Of a stretch of 64,000 nt of DNA, positions 6,370 to 30,238 are shown in pieces. The position numbers were made by a program, and so were the translations under genes. Where the stretch lies: IMG/VR virus record IMGVR_UViG_3300009155_000040, positions 1-64,000 of that record. One strand, given 5' to 3'. Origin of the DNA: a virus. Under the pieces are notes generated by a model that saw nothing but the letters and a program-made list of their open reading frames with translations, was not told the origin of the DNA and did not search any database. Each line of letters begins with the position of its first letter. The stretch's first letter is position 1.

Positions 6370-6735
6370 ATGATTAAAGGACTTACAGGCACATGCGGAG
6401 TTACGGTATCAGCAGGTAATACTGCTCTGCCGTATGTTGGCCCAAACACTAGTAATCCAATGACCGGAATGATGCGTATTAACGGTACAGAGATAGAAGT
6501 GTTTAACGGTAGTAGTTGGCAACAGCTATCTACTAGCTATGCTACTGTGAGTTTAGATCAAGATATATTAGACACCGTACAATGGGCACGTAAGAAACGT
6601 GACGAAGAAATGAAGTGGAAGAGCTTGGCAAATGACAATAAGGCTGTTAAAATAGCATTAGACAATCTAGAACAGGCAAGACAGCAATTAGAACTTACAA
6701 CAATTTTAGCGAGAGAATATGAAACAACCAGTTAA
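6370..6735 (+). CDS. Hypothetical protein
   Basis: ORF track; tightly packed, C-terminal coiled coil. Confidence 0.7.
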   Translation: MIKGLTGTCGVTVSAGNTALPYVGPNTSNPMTGMMRINGTEIEVFNGSSWQQLSTSYATVSLDQDILDTVQWARKKRDEEMKWKSLANDNKAVKIALDNLEQARQQLELTTILAREYETTS

Positions 6736-8329
6736 CCTAACACCATTACAAAAAGACTATGCTGTATACCTACCGGCTATCAGTTCTTTCTATTCAACTT
6801 ATGTAGCAAAACAACGAGAAGGAGAGTTTGTCTCCAAAGATCGTATTCCCAAAGGTTTTGATCAAGGTATTGAAGGAATGAATTTCTTAAATGCAGATCA
6901 AGGATACTTTACCTACAAGTATGCTCTTTACTCTGCAGGACACGCACAGTTGAATCTCGAAAAGAGTGTGATACAAGAATCCATGATACAACAACGTGAC
7001 AGGGCAAATACTGTTATTGTTGGCGACTCTGGTGGTTATCAGATTGGTAAGGGTGTTCTTAAGTTTGATTGGTTGAACTTCGAAGGCCCCGCTGCAAATA
7101 AAACACGTTTAGATATCTTACGTTGGTTAGAACTAACTGCTGATTGGTCAATGATGTTGGACGTTCCAACATGGGCATGTGATCATATTCATAGTCCAAA
7201 GACTGGATTAAAAACATTTGATGATTGTTTAGAAAAGACTGCATTTAATAACAAGTTCTTTTTAGAAAATCGCGACGGCAAAGCCACTAAGTTCTTAAAT
7301 GTGTTGCAAGGCGGTGACTGGGATACTGCTGAAAAGTGGTATAATAGAGTTAAAGAGTTTAGTGATCCGGCAGTATGGGGTGATAATGCCGCAGAAGGTT
7401 GGGCTATGGGTGGTGCTAATATGTGTAAGATGGATATTACACTCAAGCGTCTAATGACCATGCGTGAAGATGGTTTGCTCAAAGGCAAAAACTGGATTCA
7501 CTTCTTGGGTACAGCACAATTAGACTGGTCATGTTACTTAACACAGATCCAACGTCAGATACGCAAACACATTAATCCAGAACTTACTGTCAGCTTTGAC
7601 TGTGCAAGTCCATTTATTGCTACTGCACACGGACTTGTTTATACAAATGCACAACATACCAACAAGCGTTGGAGTGTTATTATGGACAAGGCTCCGGATA
7701 ACAAAGCACTTGCTGGTAGACACGACATTCCGTTTCCGTTTGAAAGTGAAACTGGTTCTCGATTGACCATGGGCGATATTGCATACTACGATTACGGTGT
7801 TCGCAAAACTGACGCAGAACTCGGCGGAGTTAAATTTAATCATTTAGATCCAGAACACTATCATCAAGTTCCAAAACTCAACAAGCTAGGCAAGATTCCA
7901 AATAAGACTAGCTGGGATAGTTTCAGCTACGCACTAATGATGGGGCATAATGTCGAATGTCATATTGTTGCCGTACAACGTGCTCAACAGTTAATGGATA
8001 TCGAATGTGCAAGATTTAAACCTGATTGGCGAATGAAGAGCATTGAAGGTAAGAAAGAAATTGAATTTAGTGATTGGGTTCCAAATAGAATCCTGTACTT
8101 CGGTACATTCATTGAAGAATTATTTAATACCAAAACTAAAGCAGAAGCATTTGACATGATCGAAAATGCTGGGCAGTTCTTGAAATCACTGGAAGGTGCT
8201 CGACTACAGGGCGGTCCTGCTGCAAACACATTTGGTAACTTGTTTGCATTTGATGATGGTAAGAAAGCTGGAGAAATTGATTTTTCTAGTCCAGACGATG
8301 ACGAGTTGAACAGTTTAGTTGTTGAATAA
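6719..8329 (+). CDS. dpdA: TGT-fold DNA 7-deazaguanine transglycosylase (DpdA-like)
   Basis: Ordered TGT active-site motifs DSGGYQI, MMLDVP, VLQG, GWAMGG, HFLG and SFDCASP; FolE, QueE and a QueD paralog nearby. Confidence 0.75.
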   Translation: MKQPVNLTPLQKDYAVYLPAISSFYSTYVAKQREGEFVSKDRIPKGFDQGIEGMNFLNADQGYFTYKYALYSAGHAQLNLEKSVIQESMIQQRDRANTVIVGDSGGYQIGKGVLKFDWLNFEGPAANKTRLDILRWLELTADWSMMLDVPTWACDHIHSPKTGLKTFDDCLEKTAFNNKFFLENRDGKATKFLNVLQGGDWDTAEKWYNRVKEFSDPAVWGDNAAEGWAMGGANMCKMDITLKRLMTMREDGLLKGKNWIHFLGTAQLDWSCYLTQIQRQIRKHINPELTVSFDCASPFIATAHGLVYTNAQHTNKRWSVIMDKAPDNKALAGRHDIPFPFESETGSRLTMGDIAYYDYGVRKTDAELGGVKFNHLDPEHYHQVPKLNKLGKIPNKTSWDSFSYALMMGHNVECHIVAVQRAQQLMDIECARFKPDWRMKSIEGKKEIEFSDWVPNRILYFGTFIEELFNTKTKAEAFDMIENAGQFLKSLEGARLQGGPAANTFGNLFAFDDGKKAGEIDFSSPDDDELNSLVVE

Positions 8330-9324: not shown

Positions 9325-9878
9325 AACGTGACTATGACACAGGTGTAGCAGACAGCATTACATTCTTTACAGGTGTAGAGATTGAAAAAACTCCTGCGTA
9401 TGGAATGAAAACTCTATTTGTAGTAGGAGTTCATGATCCATATACTATTTTAGAAATGGTTGCTGAAAGCCGTTCATACACAGACAAGTCTAAACATATT
9501 ACACATATCTATTTTGGTGCTAATCAAAGTTTTAAAACCAAAGGCGTAAATGATGTCGAAACATGGCGTCCTTGGGAGAATATGATCTATGTTTGTTTAG
9601 ACAGTGAATATGATCTTTGGTGTACTCTAGACTTTGATGTCTGCGAAGTAGAAGGCTTGTTAGAAAGCGGACTTGTCGAGAAGCGTCAATTTATCCCGCA
9701 AATTTCGGTTAAACTACCCTATTTACAACAGCTGGGATATAATGCTACAATCAAGATAGACGACAAAGATTTTAAAGCAACTAATCCTGGAGTGTGGTGC
9801 CATAACCTCCATGACCTACTAGATAGAAATAAGTTTACTAGTTGGGACCAATATGGTAAGGATGAGATTATAAAATGA
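9321..9878 (+). CDS. Hypothetical protein within the deazaguanine cluster
   Basis: ORF track; globular with HIYFGANQSF and WCH motifs. Confidence 0.7.
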   Translation: MKRDYDTGVADSITFFTGVEIEKTPAYGMKTLFVVGVHDPYTILEMVAESRSYTDKSKHITHIYFGANQSFKTKGVNDVETWRPWENMIYVCLDSEYDLWCTLDFDVCEVEGLLESGLVEKRQFIPQISVKLPYLQQLGYNATIKIDDKDFKATNPGVWCHNLHDLLDRNKFTSWDQYGKDEIIK

Positions 9879-10255
9879 GTGGTGGATATGCAGTAGCAAC
9901 GGCCAAAAGTCCGAGGCGTATACCTCGAATCACTGGCTCTAACCGTATCGGTCGTACAAGCCCTCCCAGAGAAATTCAAACTATGAAACTAACATTTAAA
10001 CAACGTATTCGAAACTGGTTAATGAATGACAGCGACGACTGTGAACAAGTTTATGCTGAAGACTGTGCTGGGCTAGAGCTTCAATCTAATAGCTTCCGCC
10101 TAAATATCTATGGTGCTAGTGGTGGCACTATTATCGAAACTACCAAGTACGACCGTAAGAGCGATGAGAATCGCCATAGTCTACATGTAGTCACTGAAGA
10201 TAAAGATCTCGGTGAAGAACTCAGCAAAATTATCACTATGGAGCAATTACGATGA
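9875..10255 (+). CDS. Hypothetical protein
   Basis: ORF track; ATGA overlaps at both ends. Confidence 0.65.
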   Translation: MSGGYAVATAKSPRRIPRITGSNRIGRTSPPREIQTMKLTFKQRIRNWLMNDSDDCEQVYAEDCAGLELQSNSFRLNIYGASGGTIIETTKYDRKSDENRHSLHVVTEDKDLGEELSKIITMEQLR

Positions 10256-10479
10256 TGCACGAAAGTATTGAAGTTAAACACTTCACAGTAAAAAACAATC
10301 CTGGATTCCGTGTTCGTGTTGAACAATGGGAAGTTATTAGTCCTAAAGGTTTGTACTCTTTGAATTTTATTCAAGAGAGTCTTAAAGACGATGGCACTGT
10401 GCAAGATAGTCAAATTTACAATTTCTTTATGACTAAAGAAGAAATTAAAACTCTAACAGAAGGATTGCTAAGTGAGTAA
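10252..10479 (+). CDS. Hypothetical protein
   Basis: ORF track. Confidence 0.6.
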   Translation: MMHESIEVKHFTVKNNPGFRVRVEQWEVISPKGLYSLNFIQESLKDDGTVQDSQIYNFFMTKEEIKTLTEGLLSE

Positions 10480-10873
10480 TACACTTCGACAAGATTGGCG
10501 TCCTAATAAAATGATATGGGTTACTTTCCGTAAGGAAGGCATTCATAAATACCCTGCGGCGCTGACAGATCCAGCGTTGGCTACAGGAGACGAATATGAC
10601 GTATCTTTTTTGGGTTATCCTCACCGCCACATCTTTCATTTCAGGGTGTGGATCAGTGTGCTCCACAATGACAGGGATATCGAGTTCATCCAGTTCAAAC
10701 GATGGCTCGAGTCGCTGTATAATGGTCAAGGTGCCGTTCTAAGCCTTGATTTCAAGAGTTGTGAAATGATGTCAGACGATCTGTTTGATGTTATTTCCAA
10801 TAAGTATCCAGGTCGCGAGATCTGGATTGAGATCTCCGAAGACGGAGAAAATGGTTCATTTATCAAATATTAA
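10472..10873 (+). CDS. T-fold QueD/PTPS paralog with L-x3-HRH-x-F motif (DpdL-like candidate)
   Basis: EGIH…LGYPHRHIF…SCEMMS…EDGENG maps onto QueD H…C-x3-HGH…TAENIA…E, with Leu at the catalytic Cys position. Confidence 0.7.
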   Translation: MSNTLRQDWRPNKMIWVTFRKEGIHKYPAALTDPALATGDEYDVSFLGYPHRHIFHFRVWISVLHNDRDIEFIQFKRWLESLYNGQGAVLSLDFKSCEMMSDDLFDVISNKYPGREIWIEISEDGENGSFIKY

Positions 10874-10885
10874 CAAGAGGCTGCA

Positions 10886-11131
10886 ATGGCTAGAAACTAT
10901 AAAGATTATTCATATTTTGAAAATCGTCCTGATGTTGTGCGGGTCTTTGATGACCTGGATGCATATCTCAACTACTGTCGTATTGAGTTATGTGATTTTA
11001 ACCCTGCGGATCTTTATCGCAAAGATTCTGCAATTTATCAGGCTTACTTAAACAGTAAGCGACCACGGAGACCATACCAAGGTAATAAACCTAGGTTTGA
11101 AAAAAGACGTAATGACAATTTTTCTCGTTGA
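10886..11131 (+). CDS. Hypothetical protein
   Basis: ORF track; GAGG SD. Confidence 0.65.
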   Translation: MARNYKDYSYFENRPDVVRVFDDLDAYLNYCRIELCDFNPADLYRKDSAIYQAYLNSKRPRRPYQGNKPRFEKRRNDNFSR

Positions 11132-12185
11132 TTTAGAATCAGTCGAAACAAGGTACACGGGACAATGGAAGTCCCATGTGCCTGCGCTCCTACGAAAGGA
11201 AGGACACAATGTTCAAATTATCTCTGGCCCTACGGATATTCCTACAGCCACTACTCCTGGTGCTTTCCTTAATTTTGGTGGTACCAATATATACAAGTCT
11301 GCTCAAGTTGAGCAGATGGGCCGTTTATTTTGTAACGGAGCCGTTCATCCCGGCGATCACTTTATTTTTACTGATGCTTGGCACCCAGGTATCATCAACT
11401 TAAAATACATGAGTGAGCTACTGGGCATACCAGTAACAACACACGGCTTATGGCATGCTGGTAGTTATGATCCTCAAGACTTTTTAGGTCGACTAGTTGG
11501 CAACAAGCCTTGGGTAAGACACTCAGAGAAAAGTTTCTTCCATGCGTTTGATCACAATTATTTTGCTACAGACTTTCATATTGATATGTTTGCACACAAT
11601 CTACTAAACATAGATTTTGAAACAGCAAAACTTTCATACATCGATAAAGGTAAAATTATTCGCACAGGTTGGCCAATGGAGTATATGCAAGATACCTTGG
11701 TGATGTACAAGAACATGCCCAAACGCGATCTTATATTGTTTCCGCATCGCATTGCTCCAGAGAAGCAAGTTGAGATTTTCCGTGACTTGGCTACACACTT
11801 GCCACAATACGAATTTGTAGTGTGTCAGGATCAACAGTTAACAAAGAATGAATACCATAACTTGTTAGGTGAGGCGAAGATGGTGTTCAGTGCCAACTTA
11901 CAAGAAACATTAGGCATCAGTTGGTATGAAGGTGCTGTAGTAGATGCCATTCCTATGGTTCCAGATCGTTTAAGTTACAGTGAAATGGCTTTGGATATTT
12001 TTAAATATCCTAGCAAGTGGACTGAAGACTATCACGCATACGAAGTATATCGTCCAGATCTATGTCGAAAAATTATCGAACATATGGATAATTACAAAAC
12101 TCGATTGCCAAGCCTAAATAAACAGGTATATGATTTAAAAGAAAACTTTTTTAGTTGTAATCCGTTACTAAAGAAGTTACAATAA
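11112..12185 (+). CDS. GT-B fold glycosyltransferase (GT4-like)
   Basis: C-domain motifs FPHRIAPEKQ and ETLGISWYEG (E-x-F/L-G-x4-E type); start moved to ATG 11112. Confidence 0.8.
   Translation: MTIFLVDLESVETRYTGQWKSHVPALLRKEGHNVQIISGPTDIPTATTPGAFLNFGGTNIYKSAQVEQMGRLFCNGAVHPGDHFIFTDAWHPGIINLKYMSELLGIPVTTHGLWHAGSYDPQDFLGRLVGNKPWVRHSEKSFFHAFDHNYFATDFHIDMFAHNLLNIDFETAKLSYIDKGKIIRTGWPMEYMQDTLVMYKNMPKRDLILFPHRIAPEKQVEIFRDLATHLPQYEFVVCQDQQLTKNEYHNLLGEAKMVFSANLQETLGISWYEGAVVDAIPMVPDRLSYSEMALDIFKYPSKWTEDYHAYEVYRPDLCRKIIEHMDNYKTRLPSLNKQVYDLKENFFSCNPLLKKLQ
12155..12183 (+). promoter_or_regulatory. Possible sigma70-type promoter for folE
   Basis: TTGTAA (12155-12160), 17 nt, TACAAT (12178-12183). Confidence 0.4.
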
Positions 12186-12225
12186 TAATATATGTCATCC
12201 ACGACATTAACTCGGAGAATTTTAA

Positions 12226-12990
12226 TTGACAACATTTACATCAGAAGATCTTCAAAGCGTACTTAAAGGCGCAGATGATATGAGCGACAAAGGTTACGAA
12301 GAAGGCTATCTAGGCGATGCTATTCGTTTTAAAATGAAACGTGATCGTAAACGTTTCTGGGCTGGCGATAATATCAGCGATTACGTTAGTGAAGCAGATA
12401 AAGAAATACTTATTGACGAAGCAACAGAAGCGTTTGAACGAGTATTGGATACATTGCTTATTGATCGTGAGAATGATCCAAACAGCAAAGGTACAGCCCG
12501 TCGACTGGCTAAAATGTACTTTAATGAAATAATGGCAGGGCGATATGATCCAGCACCAAATGCAACTGCTTTTCCAAATGATAGTGCAGATAGATATGAA
12601 GGAATGCTTGTGGTGCGAAGTGAGCTTCGTAGTATGTGCAGCCATCATCACCAGCCTGTTAGTGGCGTGGCTTACATTGGCATTATCGCAGCAAATAAGT
12701 TGATCGGACTTTCAAAGTATACTCGCATTGCACAATGGTGTGCTAAACGTGGGACACTACAAGAAGAACTATGCAATGATATTGCTAGAGAAATTCAAAA
12801 AGTCACAGGTGCTAACGATTTAGGTGTTTACATTCAAGCAGTCCACGGCTGTTGTGAGAATCGAGGCATTATGGCACATAGTTCATTGACGCAGACAACT
12901 GTGCTCAAAGGAGCATTTAATACAGATCCAGGTACAAAGAAAGAATTTTTCGACAACATTAAAATGCAACAAGAATTCGCACCACGTTAA
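12226..12990 (+). CDS. folE: GTP cyclohydrolase I
   Basis: SMCSHHHQP, LIGLSKYTRI, QEEL, HGCCENRG motifs; TTG start with GGAG SD; N-terminal extension. Confidence 0.95.
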   Translation: MTTFTSEDLQSVLKGADDMSDKGYEEGYLGDAIRFKMKRDRKRFWAGDNISDYVSEADKEILIDEATEAFERVLDTLLIDRENDPNSKGTARRLAKMYFNEIMAGRYDPAPNATAFPNDSADRYEGMLVVRSELRSMCSHHHQPVSGVAYIGIIAANKLIGLSKYTRIAQWCAKRGTLQEELCNDIAREIQKVTGANDLGVYIQAVHGCCENRGIMAHSSLTQTTVLKGAFNTDPGTKKEFFDNIKMQQEFAPR

Positions 12991-13001
12991 GGAGATAGAC
13001 G

Positions 13002-13202
13002 ATGCAGATAAGAGCAACTGAAAATACAGAAGCATTTGGAAAGTGTGGATGTGGCCGTAGCCCTACAGGTAAGTGTATCGGCTGGCATGGCCTCAATGAA
13101 GAGCAATTAACAGAAGCTCGAAGAGTTTGGGACTTAGAAGAATATAAAAAACAAGCTCAAACTCTTTGGAGTGATAGTTGTACCAGTGGGAGAGCCGAAT
13201 GA
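13002..13202 (+). CDS. CDGSH-like 3Cys-1His Fe-S protein
   Basis: CGCGRSPTGKCIGWH (C-x-C-x7-C-x3-H). Confidence 0.55.
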   Translation: MQIRATENTEAFGKCGCGRSPTGKCIGWHGLNEEQLTEARRVWDLEEYKKQAQTLWSDSCTSGRAE

Positions 13203-13417
13203 ACACAGCAAAGGATATAGCAGACACTCTAATCCATCGTGCTAAAAATTTACAAGAATTTATTGTGGAAAGAGATTGGGCACTTATTCCAGCAGGTGTT
13301 GTAAAATATGACATACAACATACTGTTGGTGAGCCTGCTCGTATCTTTGTACACGCAATGACACAAGAAGAAGCAGAACGTCAAGTTGACGACTGGTTTG
13401 GTGAAAGCGTAGAATGA
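13199..13417 (+). CDS. Hypothetical protein
   Basis: ORF track; start moved to the ATG overlapping the upstream stop. Confidence 0.6.
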   Translation: MNTAKDIADTLIHRAKNLQEFIVERDWALIPAGVVKYDIQHTVGEPARIFVHAMTQEEAERQVDDWFGESVE

Positions 13418-13824
13418 TTAAACCCTTGCGTGATGACTTAATGGTTCAACAGCAAGTAGATGATCCATGGCAACATTTTGTCGGTGTTATTATGCTTAAC
13501 CAAACTGGAAGAAAGGCTGTAAAAACTACATTGCCCGAATTTCTTTATTGGTTTCCTACCCCAATGGCGTTAATTAACGCAGAGGAAGAATTTGTTAAAA
13601 GCATTATACAACCACTAGGTATGGTTAATGTCCGTTATAATCGATTAGTTAAGATGAGTTGGGATTATTTGACTTGGGACAGAAATGATGCTACAATGTT
13701 ATATGGCATTGGAAAGTATGGTTCCGACAGCTATGAAATCTTTTACAAGCACAACTACACAGTCGAGCCAACCGATAAAGAATTAAAACGATACTTAGCA
13801 GAGGAAGTATTTGATGTTGCTTAA
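13414..13824 (+). CDS. MBD4-like HhH-GPD DNA glycosylase (minimal)
   Basis: PWQHFVGVIMLNQT…PLGM…LYGIGKYGSDSYEIF…PTDKELKRY closely follows the MBD4 catalytic domain. Confidence 0.8.
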   Translation: MIKPLRDDLMVQQQVDDPWQHFVGVIMLNQTGRKAVKTTLPEFLYWFPTPMALINAEEEFVKSIIQPLGMVNVRYNRLVKMSWDYLTWDRNDATMLYGIGKYGSDSYEIFYKHNYTVEPTDKELKRYLAEEVFDVA

Positions 13825-14287
13825 ACTCCTTGAACGATTAGGTCGCAAGCGTATTATTATGGATCGTGTACACGATGAACCATTGCTGACTCGTTATTAC
13901 TTGTTTTTAACAGATCGTAAATGGTTTCCATTTAATATATTCTTACACAAATTTCATAAAGGCGATCCCGGTGATGTACACGATCATCCATGGCCCTACG
14001 CTACACTGATATTGAAAGGCGGTTACTATGAATACACTCCTAATTTTGAAAATGGCAAAATGGTTGGAGAGACTAAGCATTGGCGCGGTCCTGGGCATTT
14101 CCGCATTTGTGGTTCTAACAGCTACCATCGTATCGAATTGGTTCCTGGAATAACTGCTTGGACACTGTTTATGCCAGGTCCACATAAACGTGAGTGGGGA
14201 TTTTTAGTTAATAACAAATGGATACAAAACGATCAATATCTAAAGGAGAGATATGAACAAGCTCATAATCAATCAGCAAGAACTTAA
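13814..14287 (+). CDS. Cupin-fold metalloprotein
   Basis: HDHPW…GGYYE…YHRIEL cupin metal-binding pattern. Confidence 0.7.
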   Translation: MLLKLLERLGRKRIIMDRVHDEPLLTRYYLFLTDRKWFPFNIFLHKFHKGDPGDVHDHPWPYATLILKGGYYEYTPNFENGKMVGETKHWRGPGHFRICGSNSYHRIELVPGITAWTLFMPGPHKREWGFLVNNKWIQNDQYLKERYEQAHNQSART

Positions 14288-14762
14288 TGGTTTAGTTAAT
14301 AAGATATGTCGCGACATTGTTATCAGTGATTGGCGTCCGGATTATGTTGTAGGCATAAGTCGCGGAGGATTGATTCCTGCCATTATGATTAGTCACTATC
14401 TAAATATTCCAATGCGTCCATTGCAGGTAAGTCTGCGTGATGGCGGAGATTGCGTAAGCGATTTAGGTATGGCGGAAGATGCATTTGGACATTTAGAGAA
14501 TCTTAAAAACATTCTCCTAGTAGATGACATCAACGACACTGGTGCTACATTTAATTGGATCATGAAAGATTGGCCAAGTGGTTGTTTTCCTGATGATCCT
14601 ACCTGGGAAGAAGTATGGAACGACAATGTAAGGTTTGCTGTTGTTGTTGATAATCTATCTAGCAAATGTGAAGCACCAATGGACTATGTTGGTAAAGAAA
14701 TCAACAAAGCAGAGAACGATGTCTGGGTTGATTTTCCTTGGGAAGATTGGTGGGCAAAATGA
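14253..14762 (+). CDS. Type I purine phosphoribosyltransferase (Gpt-like)
   Basis: VVGISRGGLIPA, PRPP-binding LLVDDINDTGAT, C-terminal WVDFPWE. Confidence 0.88.
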   Translation: MNKLIINQQELNGLVNKICRDIVISDWRPDYVVGISRGGLIPAIMISHYLNIPMRPLQVSLRDGGDCVSDLGMAEDAFGHLENLKNILLVDDINDTGATFNWIMKDWPSGCFPDDPTWEEVWNDNVRFAVVVDNLSSKCEAPMDYVGKEINKAENDVWVDFPWEDWWAK

Positions 14763-14986
14763 TTGATTCAAAAATCAAAGTACATTGCACTGATGCTGGT
14801 AAAGATTTCGACATGCATGTATTGGGCTACAAGCCTAAAGCATTTTTAGAAGTTGCATTTCAAACAATCAAAATGCGTTTGGCCTATATGGAACGTACTC
14901 GAGCGTTTGTTGGCAGTTTAGGCGGGCGTGAATTTGTCATTCGTGAAGATGCGCTGCCCACAGAAAGAAAGGAATACAAACGATGA
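14759..14986 (+). CDS. Hypothetical protein
   Basis: ORF track; start moved to the ATGA overlap. Confidence 0.6.
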   Translation: MIDSKIKVHCTDAGKDFDMHVLGYKPKAFLEVAFQTIKMRLAYMERTRAFVGSLGGREFVIREDALPTERKEYKR

Positions 14987-15369
14987 GAGAAGTAATTATG
15001 GAAGGACAACCTTCCGCAATTGAAGATTCAAATGCACCATGGGATAGTCTTGTTGAAGAAGACTTTCATGTTAAAGTGTTTTCAGACAAATATCCTGTAA
15101 CTGAAGGACATTTATTATTTGTGCCTAAATATAACACTGTAAGTGTTCTTATGAATGCATTTGAAGATGCAGTTCGAGACGGAATGCGTATGGTAGAAGC
15201 TGGAGAGTGTGACGGATTTAATGTAGGATTTAATTATGGTGCTACTGCTGGACAGACTGTTGGCTGGCCACATGTGCATTTAATTCCTCGACGCAATGGC
15301 GACATGGAAGATCCCACAGGCGGTGTTCGACACGTGATTCCAGAACGGGGTAATTATAGGAAATGGTAA
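14983..15369 (+). CDS. HIT-family nucleotide hydrolase
   Basis: GHLLFVPK, GFNVGFNYG…AGQTV.WPHVHLIPR. Confidence 0.85.
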   Translation: MREVIMEGQPSAIEDSNAPWDSLVEEDFHVKVFSDKYPVTEGHLLFVPKYNTVSVLMNAFEDAVRDGMRMVEAGECDGFNVGFNYGATAGQTVGWPHVHLIPRRNGDMEDPTGGVRHVIPERGNYRKW

Positions 15370-17352: not shown

Positions 17353-18213
17353 ATGAGTAAAATTAAAATTGCAGAGCTGTTTTACAGCATTCAAGGTGAA
17401 GGACGCTACATGGGCGTTCCGTCTGTGTTTCTACGCACATTTGGTTGTAACTTTAAATGTGCTGGCTTTGGTATGCCACGTGGTGAAGTAAGTCACGAAG
17501 CAACTGACATTGCGGCTACACATACTATGATTGAGTCTTTTCAAAAGTACGAAGAGTTGCCATTGGTTAGTACAGGCTGCGACAGCTATGCAAGTTGGAT
17601 GCCAGAGTTTAAAGACTTGAGTCCTATGCTGACAAGTGATGCTATTGCAGATCGTATTGCAGAGATTATTCCACACGGTGAGTGGAAGGATGAACACTTA
17701 GTTATTACAGGCGGTGAGCCTTTGCTAGGGTGGCAACGTGCTTATCCGGACTTGTTAGATCATCCTAAAATGGCAGGACTAAAAGAGATTACTTTTGAAA
17801 CTAACGGTACTCAAAAGCTATCACAAGAATTTAAAAATTATCTAACTGTGTGGAAAGGACTTCCACGTCAAAAAAGAGAAATTACATTTTCAGTAAGTGC
17901 TAAACTTCCTTGCAGTGGAGAGAAGTGGGATGAAGCTATTCTTCCAGAAGTAGTTTGCGAATACGAAGAAGTTGGCACAGCATATTTGAAGTTTGTTATT
18001 GCTACTGAACAAGATTTTGCTGACGCAGAGTGTGCAATTGCCGCTTATCGTACAGCAGGATTCAAAGGACACGTTTATCTAATGCCGGTGGGGGGCGTAG
18101 AAAGCGTTTACGCACTGAACAATAAAAATGTAGCATTGTTGGCAATGAAAAACGGTTTACGTTATAGCGATAGACTGCAAGTGCCGTTATTTAAAAATGA
18201 GTGGGGAACTTAA
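17353..18213 (+). CDS. queE: 7-carboxy-7-deazaguanine synthase (radical SAM)
   Basis: ELFYSIQGEG..G.PSVFLRTFGCNFKC…CDS, VITGGEPL, ETNG, VSAK, LMPVG, RLQVPL. Confidence 0.88.
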   Translation: MSKIKIAELFYSIQGEGRYMGVPSVFLRTFGCNFKCAGFGMPRGEVSHEATDIAATHTMIESFQKYEELPLVSTGCDSYASWMPEFKDLSPMLTSDAIADRIAEIIPHGEWKDEHLVITGGEPLLGWQRAYPDLLDHPKMAGLKEITFETNGTQKLSQEFKNYLTVWKGLPRQKREITFSVSAKLPCSGEKWDEAILPEVVCEYEEVGTAYLKFVIATEQDFADAECAIAAYRTAGFKGHVYLMPVGGVESVYALNNKNVALLAMKNGLRYSDRLQVPLFKNEWGT

Positions 18214-22238: not shown

Positions 22239-22536
22239 TTCGTTATTTAGGCCTCCACGTCATTTAGTTAAAGAGTGGCCAGAAGTGTTTGAAGATTTGT
22301 ATATGAATACCATGCCCGTGGCATATCTAGAGATGGTTCATCTAGAATTTGCCGACGGCAGGGTATGGCAAATCGATATTAAAAATCAGTTAGCCGAAGA
22401 AGCTGCTGAATTTATTGCAGACAAACTTTTGGAAACTTTTCAAGAGTACAAAGATGATATCAAAAAAATTGATTTTAAAATAGATGTAGAAAGATTAAAA
22501 AAAGATATCGCTACTTCAACAAAGGCTATTCTTTAA
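22231..22536 (+). CDS. Hypothetical protein
   Basis: ORF track; start moved to ATG 22231; last + strand gene, whose 3' end overlaps the convergent gene. Confidence 0.65.
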   Translation: MPNSLFRPPRHLVKEWPEVFEDLYMNTMPVAYLEMVHLEFADGRVWQIDIKNQLAEEAAEFIADKLLETFQEYKDDIKKIDFKIDVERLKKDIATSTKAIL

Positions 22537-23395
22537 TATAGCCTTTTTCTTTCATAAATTTAAAAATTTCTTCAGCCATTATTCTATAACCTTCTCTAGT
22601 AGGGTGCATACACGTTGTAATGTAATCTGTAGGTTCTTTTAATTTAGAATAATAGTCATAAAAAGCACCGTCGGCTAATTCTTCCCTACCGTCATATCGT
22701 AATAATAATTGCATAAAACTGTTGCACCCTTGAGGATATAAAAACTTATCCCACGGAATAGAATCTACTAATTCAGTATGCTCTTCTCCAATTTGCTGTA
22801 TAAAGTTTTCTCTAGTAATTCTTTGATCAAATGCACTGGCAACTATAAAATTCCATCCTTGGGCTTTGGCAAACATTGCTGCTTCGCGAATGTTTAATAG
22901 TGCTTCAAGGCAGACAAATTTTTCACTCCATATATCTCGAGAGTATGCTTCCCACAATTGTCGTTGTGTAGCATTTTTATCCCAAGGATTTGGCCACATG
23001 GCAAAAAAGTGATGATGTTCTTCGAATTGTCTATTAATAAAATCAAAACGCTCTATACCACTAAGCATTAAAACAAGAGTAGCTTCATTAGCTTTTTCCA
23101 TTTTAACTTTGGGGTTAATGTACAGCTCTTTTACACTTGCTCTATTTCCTTTACCAGATGCTCCAAAATTTACCGGAGTAAAGTTAGGAAGATGATTTTT
23201 ACAAATTTGAGATACCCAACTATATTCGTACATTTCAAATTCTAAATCTCTAGGAACCTTTAACGGATCAACAAATCCTCCGTATTGTTTATAAGTTTTT
23301 TTACTCCAGCTGCCTACTCCTTGAGTAAAGCTATCTCCTAATCCAATAATTAATTTTGAATTTTCATCTATTATAGGTATATGGATGTCATACAT
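22526..23395 (-). CDS. SGNH/GDSL-like hydrolase
   Basis: IIGLGDSFTQG, NFGASGKGN, CMHPTREGY. Confidence 0.7.
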   Translation of the reverse strand: MYDIHIPIIDENSKLIIGLGDSFTQGVGSWSKKTYKQYGGFVDPLKVPRDLEFEMYEYSWVSQICKNHLPNFTPVNFGASGKGNRASVKELYINPKVKMEKANEATLVLMLSGIERFDFINRQFEEHHHFFAMWPNPWDKNATQRQLWEAYSRDIWSEKFVCLEALLNIREAAMFAKAQGWNFIVASAFDQRITRENFIQQIGEEHTELVDSIPWDKFLYPQGCNSFMQLLLRYDGREELADGAFYDYYSKLKEPTDYITTCMHPTREGYRIMAEEIFKFMKEKGYIKE

Positions 23396-23397
23396 TT

Positions 23398-24654
23398 TTA
23401 TACTTTTCCTAATTTAAAATATTTGTTATACGCTTTTTCTAAACTGGCAAATGCAGGATTTATTTTTGTAGCATTCTTTTTTAGATTTTCATAATTGTGT
23501 TCTAAGATTGGTCGCATAGATTCAATCCAACTTGCTTTATCTTCAATTGCAATTATTTTTTTTATTGACTCAACTATTGCATCGTATCTTTCAAACGTTG
23601 ACAAGTTATCGTAACTTTCATCAATAAATCCATCAAACGTTTTATATCCCATGTCACGCAATTCTTTTAAACTGCCTTTGTTGCCTAAAATAATAAAAGG
23701 ATGAAAACACACAATCGGTTTGAAAACTTTTTCACTTAAGAATAATTGTTGATCAAAATCTGAAAAAGATGCTTCCGACACAACAGTGACCCACGAATCA
23801 AGACATACTTGATCCTGTATTCTTTGTATGTAATATCTATCGTCAAACTCGTTATTATTTTTTCCATGCACTATCAACGGTAACATAGAGTTTGCAACAT
23901 CTGCTCTTTCTTTTGGTAATATGCGATCTTCAAAATACACAGTATTGGTATTAAACGGATTCATACTTACTAGTCCGTGTTTTAATAATTGTTCTTCAAA
24001 CATTCTAATATAAAACCAAACTCTGTGCCCGCGAAGTCTTTTTTGTAGACAATTAAAATCTTTAATTTCGTTTATTTTTTTATATGATAAGTGTTTGTCG
24101 ACTGATGCTTCTAAAGCTGTCCAAACAGAATTATTATACACATCTGCTTCAAAATGCACATAGGGAATTGCAGTCATTCTATTTTCAATAGCATTATCCG
24201 TTGCCCATTGATCATATTGAATAGCACATAAAGAATTGCCGGTGGTGTAAATCACAGCCTCTGGGGGGATTTGATAATCAACACACTCTTTATGAAAAAA
24301 TTCCCATAACCATACTGCATGATATCCTTCCAAACATTGATCAAATAACAGCATTGCCTTTCCGTCACGAACATCATTAAGTTGTTTTTTACCGATATGA
24401 GAAAAGGCTGTTGCTTTGTTGTTTCCTATAGCTTTTGAATAACCTGTCCAATCGTTAGGACTATGATTAACACCAGTAGGTATAATGTACGGACGGGGTT
24501 TATTTTTCATAGAATACTGTCGTGCCATTTGAGTTCTATGTAATATAGTTATAGCCATTGGAGAAGGTGCAAATCGTCTAGACCCAGATAACACAACGTC
24601 CGGACATGCTGTATAATTTAAATAATTTTCTGAATCTTCAAATACAAAATTCAT
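23398..24654 (-). CDS. Putative glycosyltransferase (distant GT10/fucosyltransferase-like C-domain)
   Basis: VVSEASF…FLSEKVFKPI…PFIILG resembles the GT10 (Y/F)-x-(T/S)-EK motif; start moved to the ATGA overlap. Confidence 0.45.
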   Translation of the reverse strand: MNFVFEDSENYLNYTACPDVVLSGSRRFAPSPMAITILHRTQMARQYSMKNKPRPYIIPTGVNHSPNDWTGYSKAIGNNKATAFSHIGKKQLNDVRDGKAMLLFDQCLEGYHAVWLWEFFHKECVDYQIPPEAVIYTTGNSLCAIQYDQWATDNAIENRMTAIPYVHFEADVYNNSVWTALEASVDKHLSYKKINEIKDFNCLQKRLRGHRVWFYIRMFEEQLLKHGLVSMNPFNTNTVYFEDRILPKERADVANSMLPLIVHGKNNNEFDDRYYIQRIQDQVCLDSWVTVVSEASFSDFDQQLFLSEKVFKPIVCFHPFIILGNKGSLKELRDMGYKTFDGFIDESYDNLSTFERYDAIVESIKKIIAIEDKASWIESMRPILEHNYENLKKNATKINPAFASLEKAYNKYFKLGKV

Positions 24655-26015
24655 ACTGTTGCACACTCAAAATAGAATTCTTCCAATTCTGGAAAGGTTT
24701 TTACAAAATCTGTACCTCTTCTACGATCATATTCCGTGAACCAATTAAAGAAGTCGCGTTTGCCTTCTAACAGCTTCTCTGGGGTATAGATAGCTGATTC
24801 CATGTATTTCACGACTCTTTCAAATTTAGCATACTCTAAGTCGTTGAATTTACTACGGTTTTTATCGTCTAAATTGGCTAGAATGAAGTCTAGGTGCCGT
24901 TTCATATAAGGTATAAATTCATCTTTAGGCAAAATATTCATGTCGTACTGTAACGGTTCTTTTAAGTAGGGTGTATCAAATCGGATACGCTGCCATTTGT
25001 TTTGTTCAAATCCATTGTACTTAACACGCCACTCTAGAATTTTTTCTAACAAACTTTGGAAGTTAGTCACTGTAAGGATATTAAAGGTTATCATAAATGT
25101 AACCGGTAATTGAGTTTTTGTTAGATATGTATCTAAGTTACGCTCCCATACAGTTAAGTCCAATCCTGTACGAATGTATTCTGCCGGTGCTCCCCAAGTA
25201 TCCATACTGGTAAAAATTTTAAAATCTTTAATACAACTATTGGCAATCAAATTATTAACTTTTTCTACTAGCCTATCGATTAAAATCGGCTTGACTCCAA
25301 AATTTGAGTTGATGTTTAATTCAAGATTAGGCAACGGATTGATCAATAGATCATCTAATAGCTTCCATGTGCTAGATTGCAATAACGGCTCGCCACCAGT
25401 AATTCTTAGGATAGTTAAAGTCTTACTAACTTCCGGCCACCACTTCCACCACGCTATCACATAGGGATTAGTTTCTTCTTCGTAAATTTGAAACCAGTCA
25501 ATATCGTTGCGATGATTCTTAACCATAGTGTAAGGACCGTGATCTTTAATTTCTTTGTAATATGCACTGCTGTGTTTTGGATGACAATATCCGCATTTAA
25601 AATTACATTCATTACCAAAACTTACTTCGATGTACTGAGGATTGACAGGAGCTAGAGGATCGGCTTTAATAGCTCCTAATCGTTGTTCTGTAAAGATACT
25701 GGCATTGCGTTCATGTCTGTCGCTGATATAATCTTCGCCTAATGCTTCAATGTTCCAACAATAATTACATCCGGAAGGTTTTTCTCCTGCTATCATTTCA
25801 GCACGTTGACTGATCTTTTCTTTAGTGTTATGCAATGCACTAGGGTCTAGTGCAATTTCGTCTAAAGGAATTTTATGCGGGGCGGGATGATAACAACTGT
25901 GTGTTTCACCTGTACCTAAATAAATGGTTGTGTGATGCCATTTAGCAAGACAAAAGGTAGGAGAGATTTCATTCATTATAGGAATGAATTTCTTAATCCG
26001 GATCTTATCGTCCAT
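24651..26015 (-). CDS. Radical SAM protein with N-terminal Cys-rich (twitch/SPASM-like) domain
   Basis: CNFKCGYC, ITGGEP; N-terminal CLAKW…SCYH…CNYCW. Confidence 0.88.
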   Translation of the reverse strand: MDDKIRIKKFIPIMNEISPTFCLAKWHHTTIYLGTGETHSCYHPAPHKIPLDEIALDPSALHNTKEKISQRAEMIAGEKPSGCNYCWNIEALGEDYISDRHERNASIFTEQRLGAIKADPLAPVNPQYIEVSFGNECNFKCGYCHPKHSSAYYKEIKDHGPYTMVKNHRNDIDWFQIYEEETNPYVIAWWKWWPEVSKTLTILRITGGEPLLQSSTWKLLDDLLINPLPNLELNINSNFGVKPILIDRLVEKVNNLIANSCIKDFKIFTSMDTWGAPAEYIRTGLDLTVWERNLDTYLTKTQLPVTFMITFNILTVTNFQSLLEKILEWRVKYNGFEQNKWQRIRFDTPYLKEPLQYDMNILPKDEFIPYMKRHLDFILANLDDKNRSKFNDLEYAKFERVVKYMESAIYTPEKLLEGKRDFFNWFTEYDRRRGTDFVKTFPELEEFYFECATV

Positions 26016-26703
26016 TTAGTTTATCCTTTGACAGTTCATATTGTTCTTTTAACCAATCAAAATCATTTATCTTTATTAACTCACTTGGCGCATTTTGCCA
26101 GAACAGACCAAAATATTTTCCTGCAATTGCCCCCATATAAGCATGAGAGCCATATGGGACTGCATCGTTTAGTGTACACCATGCTTCTAATCGCTGTGTT
26201 GTCTCTAGGTCATCTTGGCGGTCAATGGTTTTACTTGCCAACTTGCAACATTCTCTGAAAGCTGATTTCCATGTATTGAACGAATCTGTATTGAATGCAG
26301 TAATGTTGCTGACTTCCGGCATTGCTTTAAACAAAGAACTAATACTTGTTGTCATGTCTGGAGTAGAGACATCCATATTTTGTGTTAGTCGTTTAGGCAG
26401 CAACTTAACTCCACCGTATCCGTATTCTAAATCATTGATAGGATTACGACTGCGCCAAACATGCACACACTCCAAATCGTATTTGCTAACTTCGTAATCA
26501 AAATTAAATGTATCAAGTATTTCTGCATCAGCATCTACTACCCAAAACATTTTTGTAAATGCTTTTTTTGCTGCGGCAATATGTGCTTGGTGTATTCCTT
26601 TAATTCCATGCACTCTGTGTGCGTAAGGAAACCTTGCCTTTAACTTAGCAAAGTTAGCATCTGCATTTGGTTCGTTATAACTGATAAAAATAATATCGTA
26701 CAT
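26005..26703 (-). CDS. GT-A-like putative glycosyltransferase
   Basis: DIIFISYNEPNA, WVVDADA (DxD), YGYGGVKL. Confidence 0.6.
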   Translation of the reverse strand: MYDIIFISYNEPNADANFAKLKARFPYAHRVHGIKGIHQAHIAAAKKAFTKMFWVVDADAEILDTFNFDYEVSKYDLECVHVWRSRNPINDLEYGYGGVKLLPKRLTQNMDVSTPDMTTSISSLFKAMPEVSNITAFNTDSFNTWKSAFRECCKLASKTIDRQDDLETTQRLEAWCTLNDAVPYGSHAYMGAIAGKYFGLFWQNAPSELIKINDFDWLKEQYELSKDKLNGR

Positions 26704-27584
26704 TATTGCCTAAAATAAGTTAATCCGAGATCTATTGTTTCATTATAAAGATCTAAAACATATTTGCTCTGCTGGGCATCAAGGTTGGGCCAATCTAACC
26801 CTAAATTAAGTTTAATTTTTTCTCCAAGGTCCTGTATGTCTTTTTCAAGACATCCATGCAAAACATTTTCTTGGTATATATTTTTAAGAATTTCAAAATC
26901 TCTAACTTGGACATAATCCCAATCTGTACAGTTAGTCATCCATGTACCAAGCCTTGCACCATGTATTGCATATAATCCGTTTTCCTCATGGGCTCCTACA
27001 GTACTCCACATACGCAACCTATGGATATTATGCCACCATATATGATCCTGTAATTCCATTGCTGGAACTTTAATTCCGTCCTTCAATGTCATCTTAACAC
27101 CTTCACGGAATCCTGCTCGCCATGCTTGGAACGGCGAACCTGTGATAATGCTTTCACTGTAGACTACTGGGAAATTTCGATAACCGTCTTCCCAACAGAA
27201 ATCTACCTGTGCCCTATCGCTTGTACTGGCTTCATGGGTTTGCATATTGAGAATAAACTCTTTTTTCCAAATTTTAATTCCGCCGTTACCGTAACGTAAA
27301 CCATTAATTTTATTTCTACCACACCAACCATAAACTTGTATCTTTGGATCACTCATATCTAGATCTAAATCAAAAAATTTAGGATCTACAATATTATCTG
27401 CATCAACAGTTATAAGCCAATCGGTATCACTCAAGTTGGCTGCGGCTTTGTGTGCATGGTCGCTGCCCTTAACACCGTGTACTCGTTTTGCCCACGGAGC
27501 TTTATCGCATAAGTCGGCATAATGTATATCAGCATTTGGTTCATCGTAACTGATAAAAATAATATCAAATTCTACTATTTTCAT
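26703..27584 (-). CDS. GT-A-like putative glycosyltransferase, paralog of 26005-26703
   Basis: DIIFISYDEPNA, ITVDADN, YGNGGIKI, AWRAGFRE. Confidence 0.6.
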   Translation of the reverse strand: MKIVEFDIIFISYDEPNADIHYADLCDKAPWAKRVHGVKGSDHAHKAAANLSDTDWLITVDADNIVDPKFFDLDLDMSDPKIQVYGWCGRNKINGLRYGNGGIKIWKKEFILNMQTHEASTSDRAQVDFCWEDGYRNFPVVYSESIITGSPFQAWRAGFREGVKMTLKDGIKVPAMELQDHIWWHNIHRLRMWSTVGAHEENGLYAIHGARLGTWMTNCTDWDYVQVRDFEILKNIYQENVLHGCLEKDIQDLGEKIKLNLGLDWPNLDAQQSKYVLDLYNETIDLGLTYFRQ

Positions 27585-28204
27585 TTAATCTCCAATACAT
27601 AATTTTTAAACAATCGTCTTGTATACACACTAAATTTAATAGGTAAATCTAAATTTTTAAGTACAAATTTCTTTCCTACAAGATCTGATATTTTTATAGA
27701 AAACGGTTTGTACAATACATTAGGATCATTGTAATCTGTAATTAAAAAATTCATATCAGTATTACCGGCCCAATTGATTTTTTTCTTTTTAACTGGTTGG
27801 AATTTCTTAGGAAGTTTTTTAGTTCCACCGTATTCTTCAGTTAATTCTAGTGTCAACGAGTTTGCTTTATAAGTTAAAAATACATTTGGTTTATCAAATT
27901 CTGCATGTTGCACTTCAACAATGCGATGTAACACATCGTCTATTTTATATAAAGCTCTAGTTTCGGATATAACATAACTGTCGCCTGTGATGTCCACCGA
28001 ACAAGAATTAAGATTAATTTTACCTTCAATGATCATTTCAGCAACTTCTTGATCCATTGGAATTTTATGTTCTTCATTTAAAAATGCAGACTTTGGACCA
28101 ACTGCTGTTATTGCGCCTGATGTCGGATTAAACACAGCAAAGAATTCTACCGGAGGTAAAATAATAGGTTCGAATAACATATCAAAATCAATTATTTCTT
28201 CCAT
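27581..28204 (-). CDS. Hypothetical protein
   Basis: ORF track; within the GT block. Confidence 0.7.
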   Translation of the reverse strand: MEEIIDFDMLFEPIILPPVEFFAVFNPTSGAITAVGPKSAFLNEEHKIPMDQEVAEMIIEGKINLNSCSVDITGDSYVISETRALYKIDDVLHRIVEVQHAEFDKPNVFLTYKANSLTLELTEEYGGTKKLPKKFQPVKKKKINWAGNTDMNFLITDYNDPNVLYKPFSIKISDLVGKKFVLKNLDLPIKFSVYTRRLFKNYVLEIK

Positions 28205-29031
28205 GCTATTTCCTCTAAAATATTAATTACTTCTTGTGTAATTTTATCTTTTTCTACATAATGAACAATATTATGTTGTTGATAGTTTCCTATTTTTACC
28301 TGTCCTTTGCGATTTACATAAAATCCCAAATGATCGCTCCATACATCTGACGGCCAAGGAAAGTTTTGTATCATGCCTTTCATGTGTACTACTTTAGGAA
28401 AATCTAAATCATATGCGATATCATCAGCAATATCTAAAATTTTTGCTGCTAGGGCAAAGGCTTCGTCAGTGCCAACAACTTTTGGTTTAAGTTCTGTTAA
28501 AAATAAATTTGAAAATTCTACAGGATTTTCAATAATACTGCGAGCCAATGTAAAAAACTCTTTGGCTACAGCACTGTCTTTTTTAAAAAATGTATAGAAA
28601 CTATAAAGATTAGGTAATTTATTTTTTGTAAATGTCCTACGATAATAGTCACTGTCTACTAATTCTTCTCTATAGGTATATGCATTATTGGCAATATACA
28701 ATTCATTATTTTCTACAAAATAATCAATCCAATGACTGTAGTCTCTAGTAAACAACATGTCAGAATCTAAACAAACTGTATAATCAAAAGGACTGTATGT
28801 GTCCATCCATGATCTAGCATCCCAACCTTTATACTTTTCAATTTTTTCTACATGATCAAACACCCAAGAAGATTTTAATTTCTTTACTGCATCGACATCG
28901 TCTGTCATTAGACATACTTTGTCATATCCTTCTTTTTGAGTATTCTTAATACTAAGTGCTAATGCATAAGCTAGATTGAGATAATCTATATTGTCATTAG
29001 TAGAAACAAAAATTAAATATCCAAAGTTCAT
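28192..29031 (-). CDS. GT-A (GT8-like) putative glycosyltransferase
   Basis: YLNLAYALALSIK, SPFDYTVCLDSDMLF, GTDEAF, late VH.K. Confidence 0.65.
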   Translation of the reverse strand: MNFGYLIFVSTNDNIDYLNLAYALALSIKNTQKEGYDKVCLMTDDVDAVKKLKSSWVFDHVEKIEKYKGWDARSWMDTYSPFDYTVCLDSDMLFTRDYSHWIDYFVENNELYIANNAYTYREELVDSDYYRRTFTKNKLPNLYSFYTFFKKDSAVAKEFFTLARSIIENPVEFSNLFLTELKPKVVGTDEAFALAAKILDIADDIAYDLDFPKVVHMKGMIQNFPWPSDVWSDHLGFYVNRKGQVKIGNYQQHNIVHYVEKDKITQEVINILEEIAWKK

Positions 29032-29891
29032 GCTAACTCCATTAGTTTTTCTGAGTGGCGAATAATACTTTGTTTGTTCATCACATGGATATCAAGTCCT
29101 CTTACAGCAGCGGCATAATAATTGTTGTCGCTGTGTGGACTTGCTAATATTATTAGTTTTCCTGTAGCGTCTACCGAATGTAAAACATCTTTATCTAATA
29201 CTGTTAAAATAGGAGGAAGACTTTCGTTGGTGGTTGTTTCAAACCCATCTAATATATGTTTTGCCACACTAAAAGAAATGTCATTTCTATACTGTGTTGT
29301 GTCGAATCGAAATAGGTCAGCATAATATTGATAGTTTTGTCTAATAACGTTGACCAGTTCAAAAAACATTTTGCTGTAGGGTGTTTTTTTAAACATCACA
29401 GTTGTTGCCCAATATAAATGGACCCCTGTATCGGATACATATTTGTCATGATATCCTAATCTTTTTTGATCGTAGATGTCTAGCATATTTTTAGCAATCA
29501 TAACATCTGCATCAACGTCCCAATACGAACTCAATCTATTGGAAAAAATTAAAAAATCACTGTCCATTAACAGTGTTTGATCATACGGTGTTAACTCGTA
29601 CACATTAGCACGGTTGGCATTGACAAATGGAATATTTTTAAAATGTACACCGTCGTGCAAGCGTCTCATATTGTCTGTTATTGGACGATCAACTTCTATA
29701 ATTTTATCGAATGTTGAAACTAGTTGTTCATAGTTGTTTGATATTTTAGCCCATTCTAATGTAGAGGGGTCTGTAACTAATGACACCGGTATACCTAAAT
29801 TCTTTTTAGCCAAGCGAGCAGCTAACATTGCCATGTATGCATAGTCAATGTCTCTATTGTTGTGTGCAAATATTAATGCGCCGCGTGTCAT
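29028..29891 (-). CDS. GT-A (GT8-like) putative glycosyltransferase, paralog of 28192-29031
   Basis: YAYMAMLAA, TPYDQTLLMDSDFL, RNDISFS, late HVMNK. Confidence 0.65.
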   Translation of the reverse strand: MTRGALIFAHNNRDIDYAYMAMLAARLAKKNLGIPVSLVTDPSTLEWAKISNNYEQLVSTFDKIIEVDRPITDNMRRLHDGVHFKNIPFVNANRANVYELTPYDQTLLMDSDFLIFSNRLSSYWDVDADVMIAKNMLDIYDQKRLGYHDKYVSDTGVHLYWATTVMFKKTPYSKMFFELVNVIRQNYQYYADLFRFDTTQYRNDISFSVAKHILDGFETTTNESLPPILTVLDKDVLHSVDATGKLIILASPHSDNNYYAAAVRGLDIHVMNKQSIIRHSEKLMELA

Positions 29892-30238
29892 ATGTCTAAT
29901 AATTTTTCCACACTGCGGCTTTTTTTAAGTTCTTGAAATTCTTGATAGTACTCTAATGTAGTATCATAATATCTGTCAAATATATCATCTCTAAATTTTT
30001 CTAAATCTTCAATCATGATTGGATTTTCGTTGGAATCAATTAAGGGAACATTTTCTGTTCTTCCCTGATCAATAAACATCTGTACAAATGTTATTAACGA
30101 TTTGTCAATCTTAAAGATGCCGCCGTTTTGACCAATGGTTAATTTGGCTTCAATTTTTTCTTTGAGAAGGCGTCTTTGGATTGAAAAGGTCTGACGATAG
30201 TTTGAAAACTCTAGAGCTTTTTTGAGTTGCTCTTCCAT
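29888..30238 (-). CDS. Hypothetical protein
   Basis: ORF track; first gene of the GT block; AGGGG SD. Confidence 0.7.
   Translation of the reverse strand: MEEQLKKALEFSNYRQTFSIQRRLLKEKIEAKLTIGQNGGIFKIDKSLITFVQMFIDQGRTENVPLIDSNENPIMIEDLEKFRDDIFDRYYDTTLEYYQEFQELKKSRSVEKLLDI

Follow-up and report, generated by a model that had tools for sequence, protein, structure and literature searches.

A phage glycosyltransferase linked to DpdL and long DpdA candidates: a possible new variant of deazaguanine DNA modification

What is a glycosyltransferase doing in the middle of a phage gene cluster for deazaguanine synthesis? The question is raised by the first 64 kb (64,000 nucleotides; hereafter "the window") of a 139-kb IMG/VR phage record, IMGVR_UViG_3300009155_000040, in which a gene for a 357-residue glycosyltransferase (GT; 11112-12185, + strand) stands between the genes for DpdL, a paralogue of QueD, and for FolE. 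Because the record is rated ~40% complete at this length, it is a fragment of a jumbo phage. Our analysis suggests that the module is a strong candidate for a new deazaguanine DNA-modification variant, the linkage of the GT suggesting, without proving, a sugar-bearing purine in DNA. A deazaguanine that is glycosylated in DNA is described nowhere in the papers found by full-text literature searches. To our knowledge, the sugar-decorated bases of DNA are all pyrimidines (glucosyl- and arabinosyl-hydroxymethylcytosine, base J, and glycosylated hydroxymethyluracil or 5-hydroxycytosine), and the deazaguanines of DNA all carry small groups. If the suggestion holds, glycosylated deazapurines would add a class of their own to the DNA hypermodifications, with consequences for how phages escape restriction and CRISPR, for the glycosylase and END-nuclease defences that recognize modified G, and for sequencing these phages by nanopore.

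A GT4-like glycosyltransferase within a deazaguanine module

The GT gene belongs to a run of four co-oriented and tightly packed open reading frames (ORFs) on the + strand (10472-10873, 10886-11131, 11112-12185, and 12226-12990), with successive spacings along the DpdL-GT-FolE run of an 8-nt overlap, a 12-nt gap, a 20-nt overlap, and a 40-nt gap, and with no terminator-like site on the + strand in 9800-13500. The GT ORF is listed from a TTG at 11097, and the start at ATG 11112, which gives 357 residues, is supported by the N termini of aligned homologues. The original prediction, made from the sequence alone, had described a GT-B enzyme of this length packed together with a QueD paralogue and folE, and on this point the ORFs, the DpdL motif, the PF01227 match of FolE, and the predicted fold all agree.

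By itself the window GT has no Pfam, PHROG, or PDB sequence match, and PF00534 (Glycos_transf_1) is unmatched even at E 10. PF00534 is matched by 31 of 60 diverse homologues at E ≤ 0.01 (best 6.5e-7), and PF13439 by 3 of the 60; on these scores the protein is a divergent relative of PF00534 rather than a scored member. The AlphaFold2 model (predicted local distance difference test, pLDDT, 96.1) contains two domains of alternating strands and helices, which Foldseek matches to GT-B enzymes of the GT4 and GT5 families at E 1e-10 (BshA, MshA, SPS, glycogen synthase, and PimA) and which VIA aligns to BshA, MshA, and SPS over ~300 residues (Z 24-26, root-mean-square deviation ~3 Å). A profile search of the PDB returned AmGGT (8xsg) alone, through the C-terminal domain (E 1.6e-4), and is uninformative. 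On the strength of the model we are confident that the protein is a GT4-like glycosyltransferase of the GT-B fold.

The donor-site residues expected of such an enzyme are intact. In an alignment of the 60 homologues (A1), conservation is 90% or higher at R213, K218, and E265 and complete at E273; the window protein reads FPHRIAPEKQ ... ETLGISWYE there, with E265-x7-E273 as the EX7E motif. The ratio of nonsynonymous to synonymous substitution rates (dN/dS) is ~0.1 against relatives in the window's clade, indicating purifying selection. The near-invariant R/K and EX7E residues and the purifying selection therefore make the GT very probably active, as an enzyme of the retaining type. On the N-terminal, acceptor side the family conserves residues of its own (E9, R14, Y15, W19, D88, W90, H115, D120, D123, E139, and D147). 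The family is large, with 1071 representatives at 50% identity (E ≤ 1e-3). Clustered at 90% identity it exceeds 8000 groups, which makes the lineage very abundant in metagenomes.

The gene that opens the run (10472-10873, + strand) encodes a 133-residue protein with no Pfam PTPS match. Its motif LGYPHRHIF replaces the CxxxHGH of QueD and fits the signature LxxxHRHxF that defines DpdL, a proposed decarboxylase of 7-carboxy-7-deazaguanine (CDG) to 7-deazaguanine (Cui, Hutinet et al., NAR 2023, PMC10516641). It also matches phrog_17812 (E 1e-31) and aligns over its full length with the DpdL proteins of phages phiST and ACP17 (alignment A2), with L35, H39, H41, and F43 invariant; the ORF is listed from 10472, and ATG 10511 is its likely start. 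We therefore treat it as a predicted CDG decarboxylase. FolE (12226-12990, + strand), the GTP cyclohydrolase I of the first step of deazaguanine synthesis, is matched by PF01227 (E 9e-38) and phrog_2197 (E 1e-43), and a QueE-like radical SAM enzyme, the putative CDG synthase, lies downstream at 17353-18213 (+ strand; phrog_2076 E 1e-49 and a weak PF04055 match). Neither QueC (PF06508) nor a canonical QueD (PF01242, PTPS) is matched in the 139-kb record, which lacks ~60% of the genome; in phage PA5oct the PTPS gene is placed far from the deazaguanine cluster (PMC12191111).

The transglycosylase of such a pathway is less easily recognized, since PF01702 has no match in the record. We see a candidate in a 536-residue ORF at 6719-8329 (+ strand), in which GDSGGFQ (D103), WAMGG, and FDC (D294) are invariant across its homologues (alignment A3); we take these to correspond to the catalytic Asp, the substrate-pocket Gly-Gly, and the nucleophile Asp of the Zymomonas mobilis tRNA-guanine transglycosylase (TGT). 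The top 50 Foldseek matches of its AlphaFold2 model (pLDDT 80.5) are all Z. mobilis TGT structures (E 6e-8), and one homologue does match PF01702 (2.9e-5). As modelled, the ORF is a TGT-fold, long-form DpdA candidate for the DNA-guanine transglycosylase, and the DpdA that had been proposed as part of the module is thus backed by both fold and catalytic motifs. The GT itself was considered as the missing DpdA3 transglycosylase, given the lack of PF01702 in the record, and was ruled out by its GT-B fold and by the separate TGT-fold gene.

Among phages the window-type and ACP17-type long DpdAs are joined to each other by hhalign (96% probability) and BLASTP (E 1e-4) only, and profile A3 fails to detect the ACP17 type; the short DpdA3 proteins are more distant from the long ones (hhalign 68% probability). 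Compared with the window's 6719-8329, the long DpdA is 33% to 97% identical at four loci (L104, L152, L067, and L074) of a clade whose GT and DpdL are 80-98% identical to those of the window, which suggests that the long DpdA evolves much faster or is exchanged between phages.

Linkage of the glycosyltransferase to DpdL and long DpdAs

If the GT works with the deazaguanine genes, the two should travel together, and they do. In a tblastn search of 50,697 phage records the GT is found in 22 and DpdL in 28, and the GT lies beside DpdL or within ~3 kb of it in Phosso, the PA5oct group, ACP17, BUDD/X1, and BCSR5. QueE and a TGT-like gene of 420-540 residues are close by, and in most of these lineages FolE is too. 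In cyanophage BUCT-ZZ01 a profile search places the GT directly after DpdL (E 1e-37), metagenomic loci L099-L101 carry a GT ~30% identical to the window's with the same linkage to deazaguanine genes, and L103 combines a GT with QueD and a long DpdA. Altogether, ~11 GT lineages with DpdL are found, 7 of them cultured, and the proposed co-occurrence of this GT family with deazaguanine genes is thus strongly supported. Gene order varies, from DpdL-GT in the window and Phosso to GT-DpdL in ACP17 and PA5oct, so the linkage is not simply inherited synteny. The module region itself has no megablast match among cultured phages.

The association is equally tight at close range. Within the window's clade, beyond which neither the window GT nor the DpdL alignment retrieved any locus when used as a query, DpdL lies ≤1.5 kb from the GT in 105 of 107 GT loci, and the GT ≤2.5 kb from DpdL in 100 of 101 DpdL loci. 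Among 185,579 genomes of prokaryote species, close GT relatives are found on just two short contigs of metagenome-assembled genomes, one with the phage module in full and one of 4.6 kb with a GT and FolE. As judged from these searches, close relatives of the GT are confined to phage DNA. This linkage evidence is drawn from the cultured lineages, the metagenomic loci, and the window's clade; the distant family representatives P0257 and P0270, used as queries, retrieved no loci. No other gene was found to covary with the GT across lineages.

On loci L099 and L100, which are metagenomic jumbo-phage contigs, two GT paralogues are present (L099: 1584-2636 and 10001-11092; L100: 4772-5953 and 10001-11092), one adjoining FolE and the other DpdL. 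The pairing recalls the alpha and beta GTs of T4, or could mean the stepwise addition of two sugars.

The distribution of the GT follows the type of transglycosylase. Where DpdL occurs with a long DpdA (416-570 residues), the GT is present in all 11 lineages, including Phosso, whose long DpdA sits 170 kb away. Where DpdL occurs with a short DpdA3 (259-290 residues), it is present in none of six cultured lineages (phiST and its kin, RHph_I1_18, Ahp1, Bakedbeans, D479, and MA9V-3), and profile searches of their whole records, with positive controls in one of the two, found no member of the GT family. The nearest relatives of the long DpdAs that lack both GT and DpdL sit in QueF-type clusters, in pf16, Vibrio phage 2.275.O, and the nt-1/KVP40 group; QueF is annotated in 2.275.O, and in pf16 the sequence of a gene beside the DpdA reads as QueF-like. 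The long DpdAs of these phages are expected to insert 7-substituted bases. In terms of gene content, then, the GT occurs exactly where the DpdL pathway meets a transglycosylase type otherwise used for substituted deazaguanines.

The strictness of this pattern in DpdL systems could also be produced by a protein of GT fold that is catalytically idle and serves the long DpdA as a scaffold or DNA-handling subunit, much as bacterial DpdA requires a partner, DpdB (PMC10516641, introduction). We regard this as highly improbable, since the donor R/K and EX7E residues would not be expected to stay near-invariant in an idle protein and since the long DpdAs of QueF-type phages work without a GT.

A second alternative is that the GT has a target unrelated to deazaguanine, such as a hydroxymethyl-pyrimidine, a protein, a tRNA, or an envelope precursor, and merely shares an early block of nucleotide-metabolism and replication genes. 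Some co-location is indeed expected, as in several lineages the modules are next to genes for DNA polymerase, the clamp, and RNase H; in the window, the + strand block at 0.5-22 kb encodes a B-family DNA polymerase, a clamp-like gene, and RNase H. ThyA-family enzymes are encoded by PA5oct and Phosso, which would suit a hydroxymethyl-pyrimidine acceptor, and that version of the explanation is weakened because the complete ACP17 and BUDD genomes encode no ThyA-family hydroxymethylase. No ThyA-family gene is found in the window's record either, TET/JBP-type routes lying outside the search. Neighborhood as such would not explain why GT-DpdL adjacency survives rearrangements and order flips across 11 lineages, or why the GT is missing from all six DpdL lineages with short DpdA3, whose replication blocks are similar to those of GT-bearing phages. 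We consider a target of this kind unlikely.

A distant branch of the family lends this alternative some support. In the group of Xanthomonas phage PhiXhv-12, the GT (27% identity across 64% of its length) is not near the deazaguanine genes. The original prediction had named the occurrence of the GT family apart from deazaguanine genes as evidence against its proposal; such occurrence is seen in this distant branch alone, and the close relatives are linked. At the PhiXhv-12 locus (L089:6669-9903) the GT gene comes immediately after those for a GlmS-like aminotransferase and a BshB-like deacetylase, FolE being encoded far away, and this may be a glucosamine-type modification system of its own.

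Acceptor, order of steps, and known relatives

What, then, would the GT act on? We infer that its acceptor is the deazaguanine made by the module. FolE, a QueD supplied by the host or by the unsequenced 60% of the genome, and QueE would produce CDG, which DpdL would convert to 7-deazaguanine; the long DpdA at 6719-8329 would exchange 7-deazaguanine for guanine in phage DNA; and the GT would transfer a sugar from a nucleotide sugar to the deazaguanine, either as the free base before insertion or as the base already in DNA, so that the long DpdA would handle the glycosylated base or its unglycosylated precursor. We put at about even the chance that the deazaguanine of the pathway receives a sugar from the GT and that virion DNA would carry a glycosylated deazapurine. 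The boldest reading is that phages combining DpdL, a long DpdA, and the GT have virion DNA containing glycosylated 7-deazaguanine, which would make it the first purine analogue with a sugar in any genome; we advance this more tentatively, as something that could well be true but falls a little short of an even chance. A sugar on a base inserted by DpdA had been proposed from the window alone, and this proposal has fared unevenly: the linkage of the GT and the presence of DpdA speak for it, and the predicted DpdL product, which offers no obvious acceptor, speaks against it. The order of steps given there, DpdA first and the GT second, is no better supported than the reverse.

The closest described system is that of phiST, which makes 2'-deoxy-7-deazaguanine (dDG) with FolE, QueD, QueE, DpdL, and DpdA3 (PMC10516641). 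The window likewise has FolE, QueE, DpdL, and a transglycosylase of the TGT superfamily, with no QueC found. It differs in having a 536-residue DpdA with canonical DSGGFQ and FDC motifs and a GT, where phiST has a 259-residue DpdA3 and no GT. ACP17, another dpdL/dpdA phage of the same study, has a 35%-identical GT homologue adjoining its DpdL, although a glycosyltransferase is nowhere mentioned there (Cui et al. 2023, PMC10516641). In that work E. coli carrying the dpdL and dpdA genes of ACP17 formed no dDG, for which the authors propose that a further enzyme may be required (PMC10516641); the GT may explain the missing product. Similarly, the DNA of PA5oct resists restriction enzymes that cut at G-containing sites in a study that reports restriction digests only (PMC12191111), and the GT may identify the G modification of the therapy-relevant phages PA5oct and Paride. 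With at least six GT-bearing phages in culture, the question is directly testable.

Enzymes known to glycosylate bases provide partial parallels. T4 AGT and BGT and the other DNA GTs that act on 5-hydroxymethyl-pyrimidines are nucleotide-sugar-dependent phage enzymes of the GT-B fold encoded with modified-base genes; the window GT shares the fold and this kind of gene context, and the likeness goes no further than the general GT-B level. T4-type systems use a hydroxymethyl acceptor, whereas the partner pathway in the window makes a purine analogue without a hydroxyl handle. A cyanophage "DNA alpha-GT" does appear among the BFVD matches of the GT, at rank 36 (E 3.5e-6).

The eukaryotic enzymes QTMAN (GTDC1), which is of the GT4 type and GT-B fold, and QTGAL glycosylate a 7-deazaguanine derivative that is part of a nucleic acid. 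Both act on the cyclopentenediol of queuosine in tRNA, and the window pathway has no queuosine genes.

A third parallel comes from huimycin biosynthesis, where glycosyltransferases of the family are described with the GT4-type domain PF13439 and where HuiG is credited with placing N-acetylglucosamine on the 2-amino nitrogen of a 7-deazapurine in its free form (PMC7439116; 10.64898/2026.04.15.718813). HuiG resembles the window GT, by description rather than by sequence, in being encoded with FolE/QueD/QueE-type genes, and it acts on a base derived from 7-deazaguanine, as proposed for the window GT. It differs in that its product is a free secondary metabolite of actinomycetes, made from preQ0 (through QueC) after O-methylation and without a DNA transglycosylase.

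Several points weigh against a sugar on the deazaguanine of virion DNA, in addition to the unlinked branch in PhiXhv-12. The first is chemical: 7-deazaguanine has neither a hydroxyl nor a side-chain amine, so that a sugar could be attached only at N2, at O6, at N9 while the base is free, or at a carbon, and no oxygenase, sugar-nucleotide gene, or other handle-making gene conserved across all GT lineages was found. The second concerns the enzyme. The structures closest to the GT are small-molecule GT4 enzymes, and neither the T4 AGT/BGT families nor the QTMAN-specific domain family (compared by Pfam only) is among the seven Pfam families that the 60 homologues match at E ≤ 0.01. The family is acidic (median isoelectric point 5.8), with nothing specific for DNA binding, although isoelectric point and net charge are no discriminator of DNA binding here, DpdA being equally acidic. 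Finally, phiST-type phages make dDG without a GT, with 100% of dG replaced by plain dDG in phiST DNA (PMC10516641), so that the GT is not needed for dDG.

These points bear on a further explanation, in which the GT acts in the same pathway and its product is not a sugar in virion DNA: free CDG, 7-deazaguanine, or a pterin would be glycosylated as a carrier, protected, or storage form, or the GT would be needed for the function of the long DpdA. Such a role would account equally well for the linkage to DpdL and long DpdA, and it suits both the lack of a major-groove acceptor in dDG and the small-molecule substrates of the best structural neighbors, which include BshA (malate), MshA (inositol phosphate), and LmbT (ergothioneine), with a tetrahydrobiopterin glucosyltransferase at rank 41; the assigned activity of HuiG on a free deazapurine base points the same way. 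On the other side, there is no known need for it, as phiST-type phages reach complete replacement without such a step, and a glycosidase that would remove the sugar again is not conserved in the modules. We therefore think this role improbable, if worth keeping in view.

If the deazaguanine itself bears a sugar, the bond might be an unusual one, with the sugar held as a glycoside on N2 or O6 or as a C-glycoside on C7 or C8, the electron-rich carbons of the pyrrole ring. Glycosylation of the base might come before insertion, the latter being the work of a transglycosylase adapted to 7-substituted substrates of large size.

Other genes of the module and its surroundings

The ORF between DpdL and the GT (10886-11131, + strand), which overlaps the start of the GT by 20 nt, encodes 81 residues without an assigned function; it has no Pfam or PHROG match and no counterpart in the other cultured lineages. 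Downstream of FolE the module continues with a small HhH-GPD glycosylase-like protein (13414-13824; PF00730 E 8e-7), a cupin-like protein (13811-14287, + strand), a phosphoribosyltransferase (14253-14762, + strand; PF00156 E 4e-9), and a HIT-family nucleotide hydrolase or transferase (14983-15369, + strand; PF01230 E 1.5e-8), the last of which is kept in the module across the window's clade. In Phosso an annotated glycosylase lies directly upstream of DpdL and shows no tblastn similarity to the HhH-GPD protein of the window. In the late block on the minus strand (22526-30238), read in the original prediction as a tail-linked glycosylation cassette with a fold unrelated to the GT, seven ORFs have no Pfam match at E ≤ 0.01, and weak matches come from the SGNH-like and radical SAM ORFs alone; its GT-A assignment is putative.

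The cupin belongs to a PHROG family annotated as cysteine dioxygenase (phrog_4786 E 9e-35; Atlas leads to CDO_I at 0.78-0.82). All through the window's clade it stays next to the GT, in some loci as the gene that directly follows, and it has no counterpart in the other GT lineages; PA5oct gp0320, which has a partial match to a PHROG annotated "nucleotide-sugar epimerase", shows no similarity to it. As a lead, the cupin might be an oxygenase that makes an acceptor hydroxyl, or an enzyme acting on the sugar donor.

The phosphoribosyltransferase recurs inside the deazaguanine modules of PA5oct and cyanophage BUCT-ZZ01 (L002:10330-10764 and L092:3474-3935), where homologues of the window protein are found and where the BUCT-ZZ01 gene is annotated as a xanthine-guanine phosphoribosyltransferase. 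It could return guanine set free by DpdA to the GMP and GTP pool, from which the pathway itself starts, or could ribosylate the deazaguanine base, as ToyH and TubE do.

Among the short-DpdA3 lineages, DpdL is annotated as the C-terminal part of longer proteins in the Vibrio phage Bakedbeans (gp176, 383 residues; L087:7212-8363) and the Chryseobacterium phage MA9V-3 (293 residues; L093:7464-8345), with an extra N-terminal region of ~170-260 residues.

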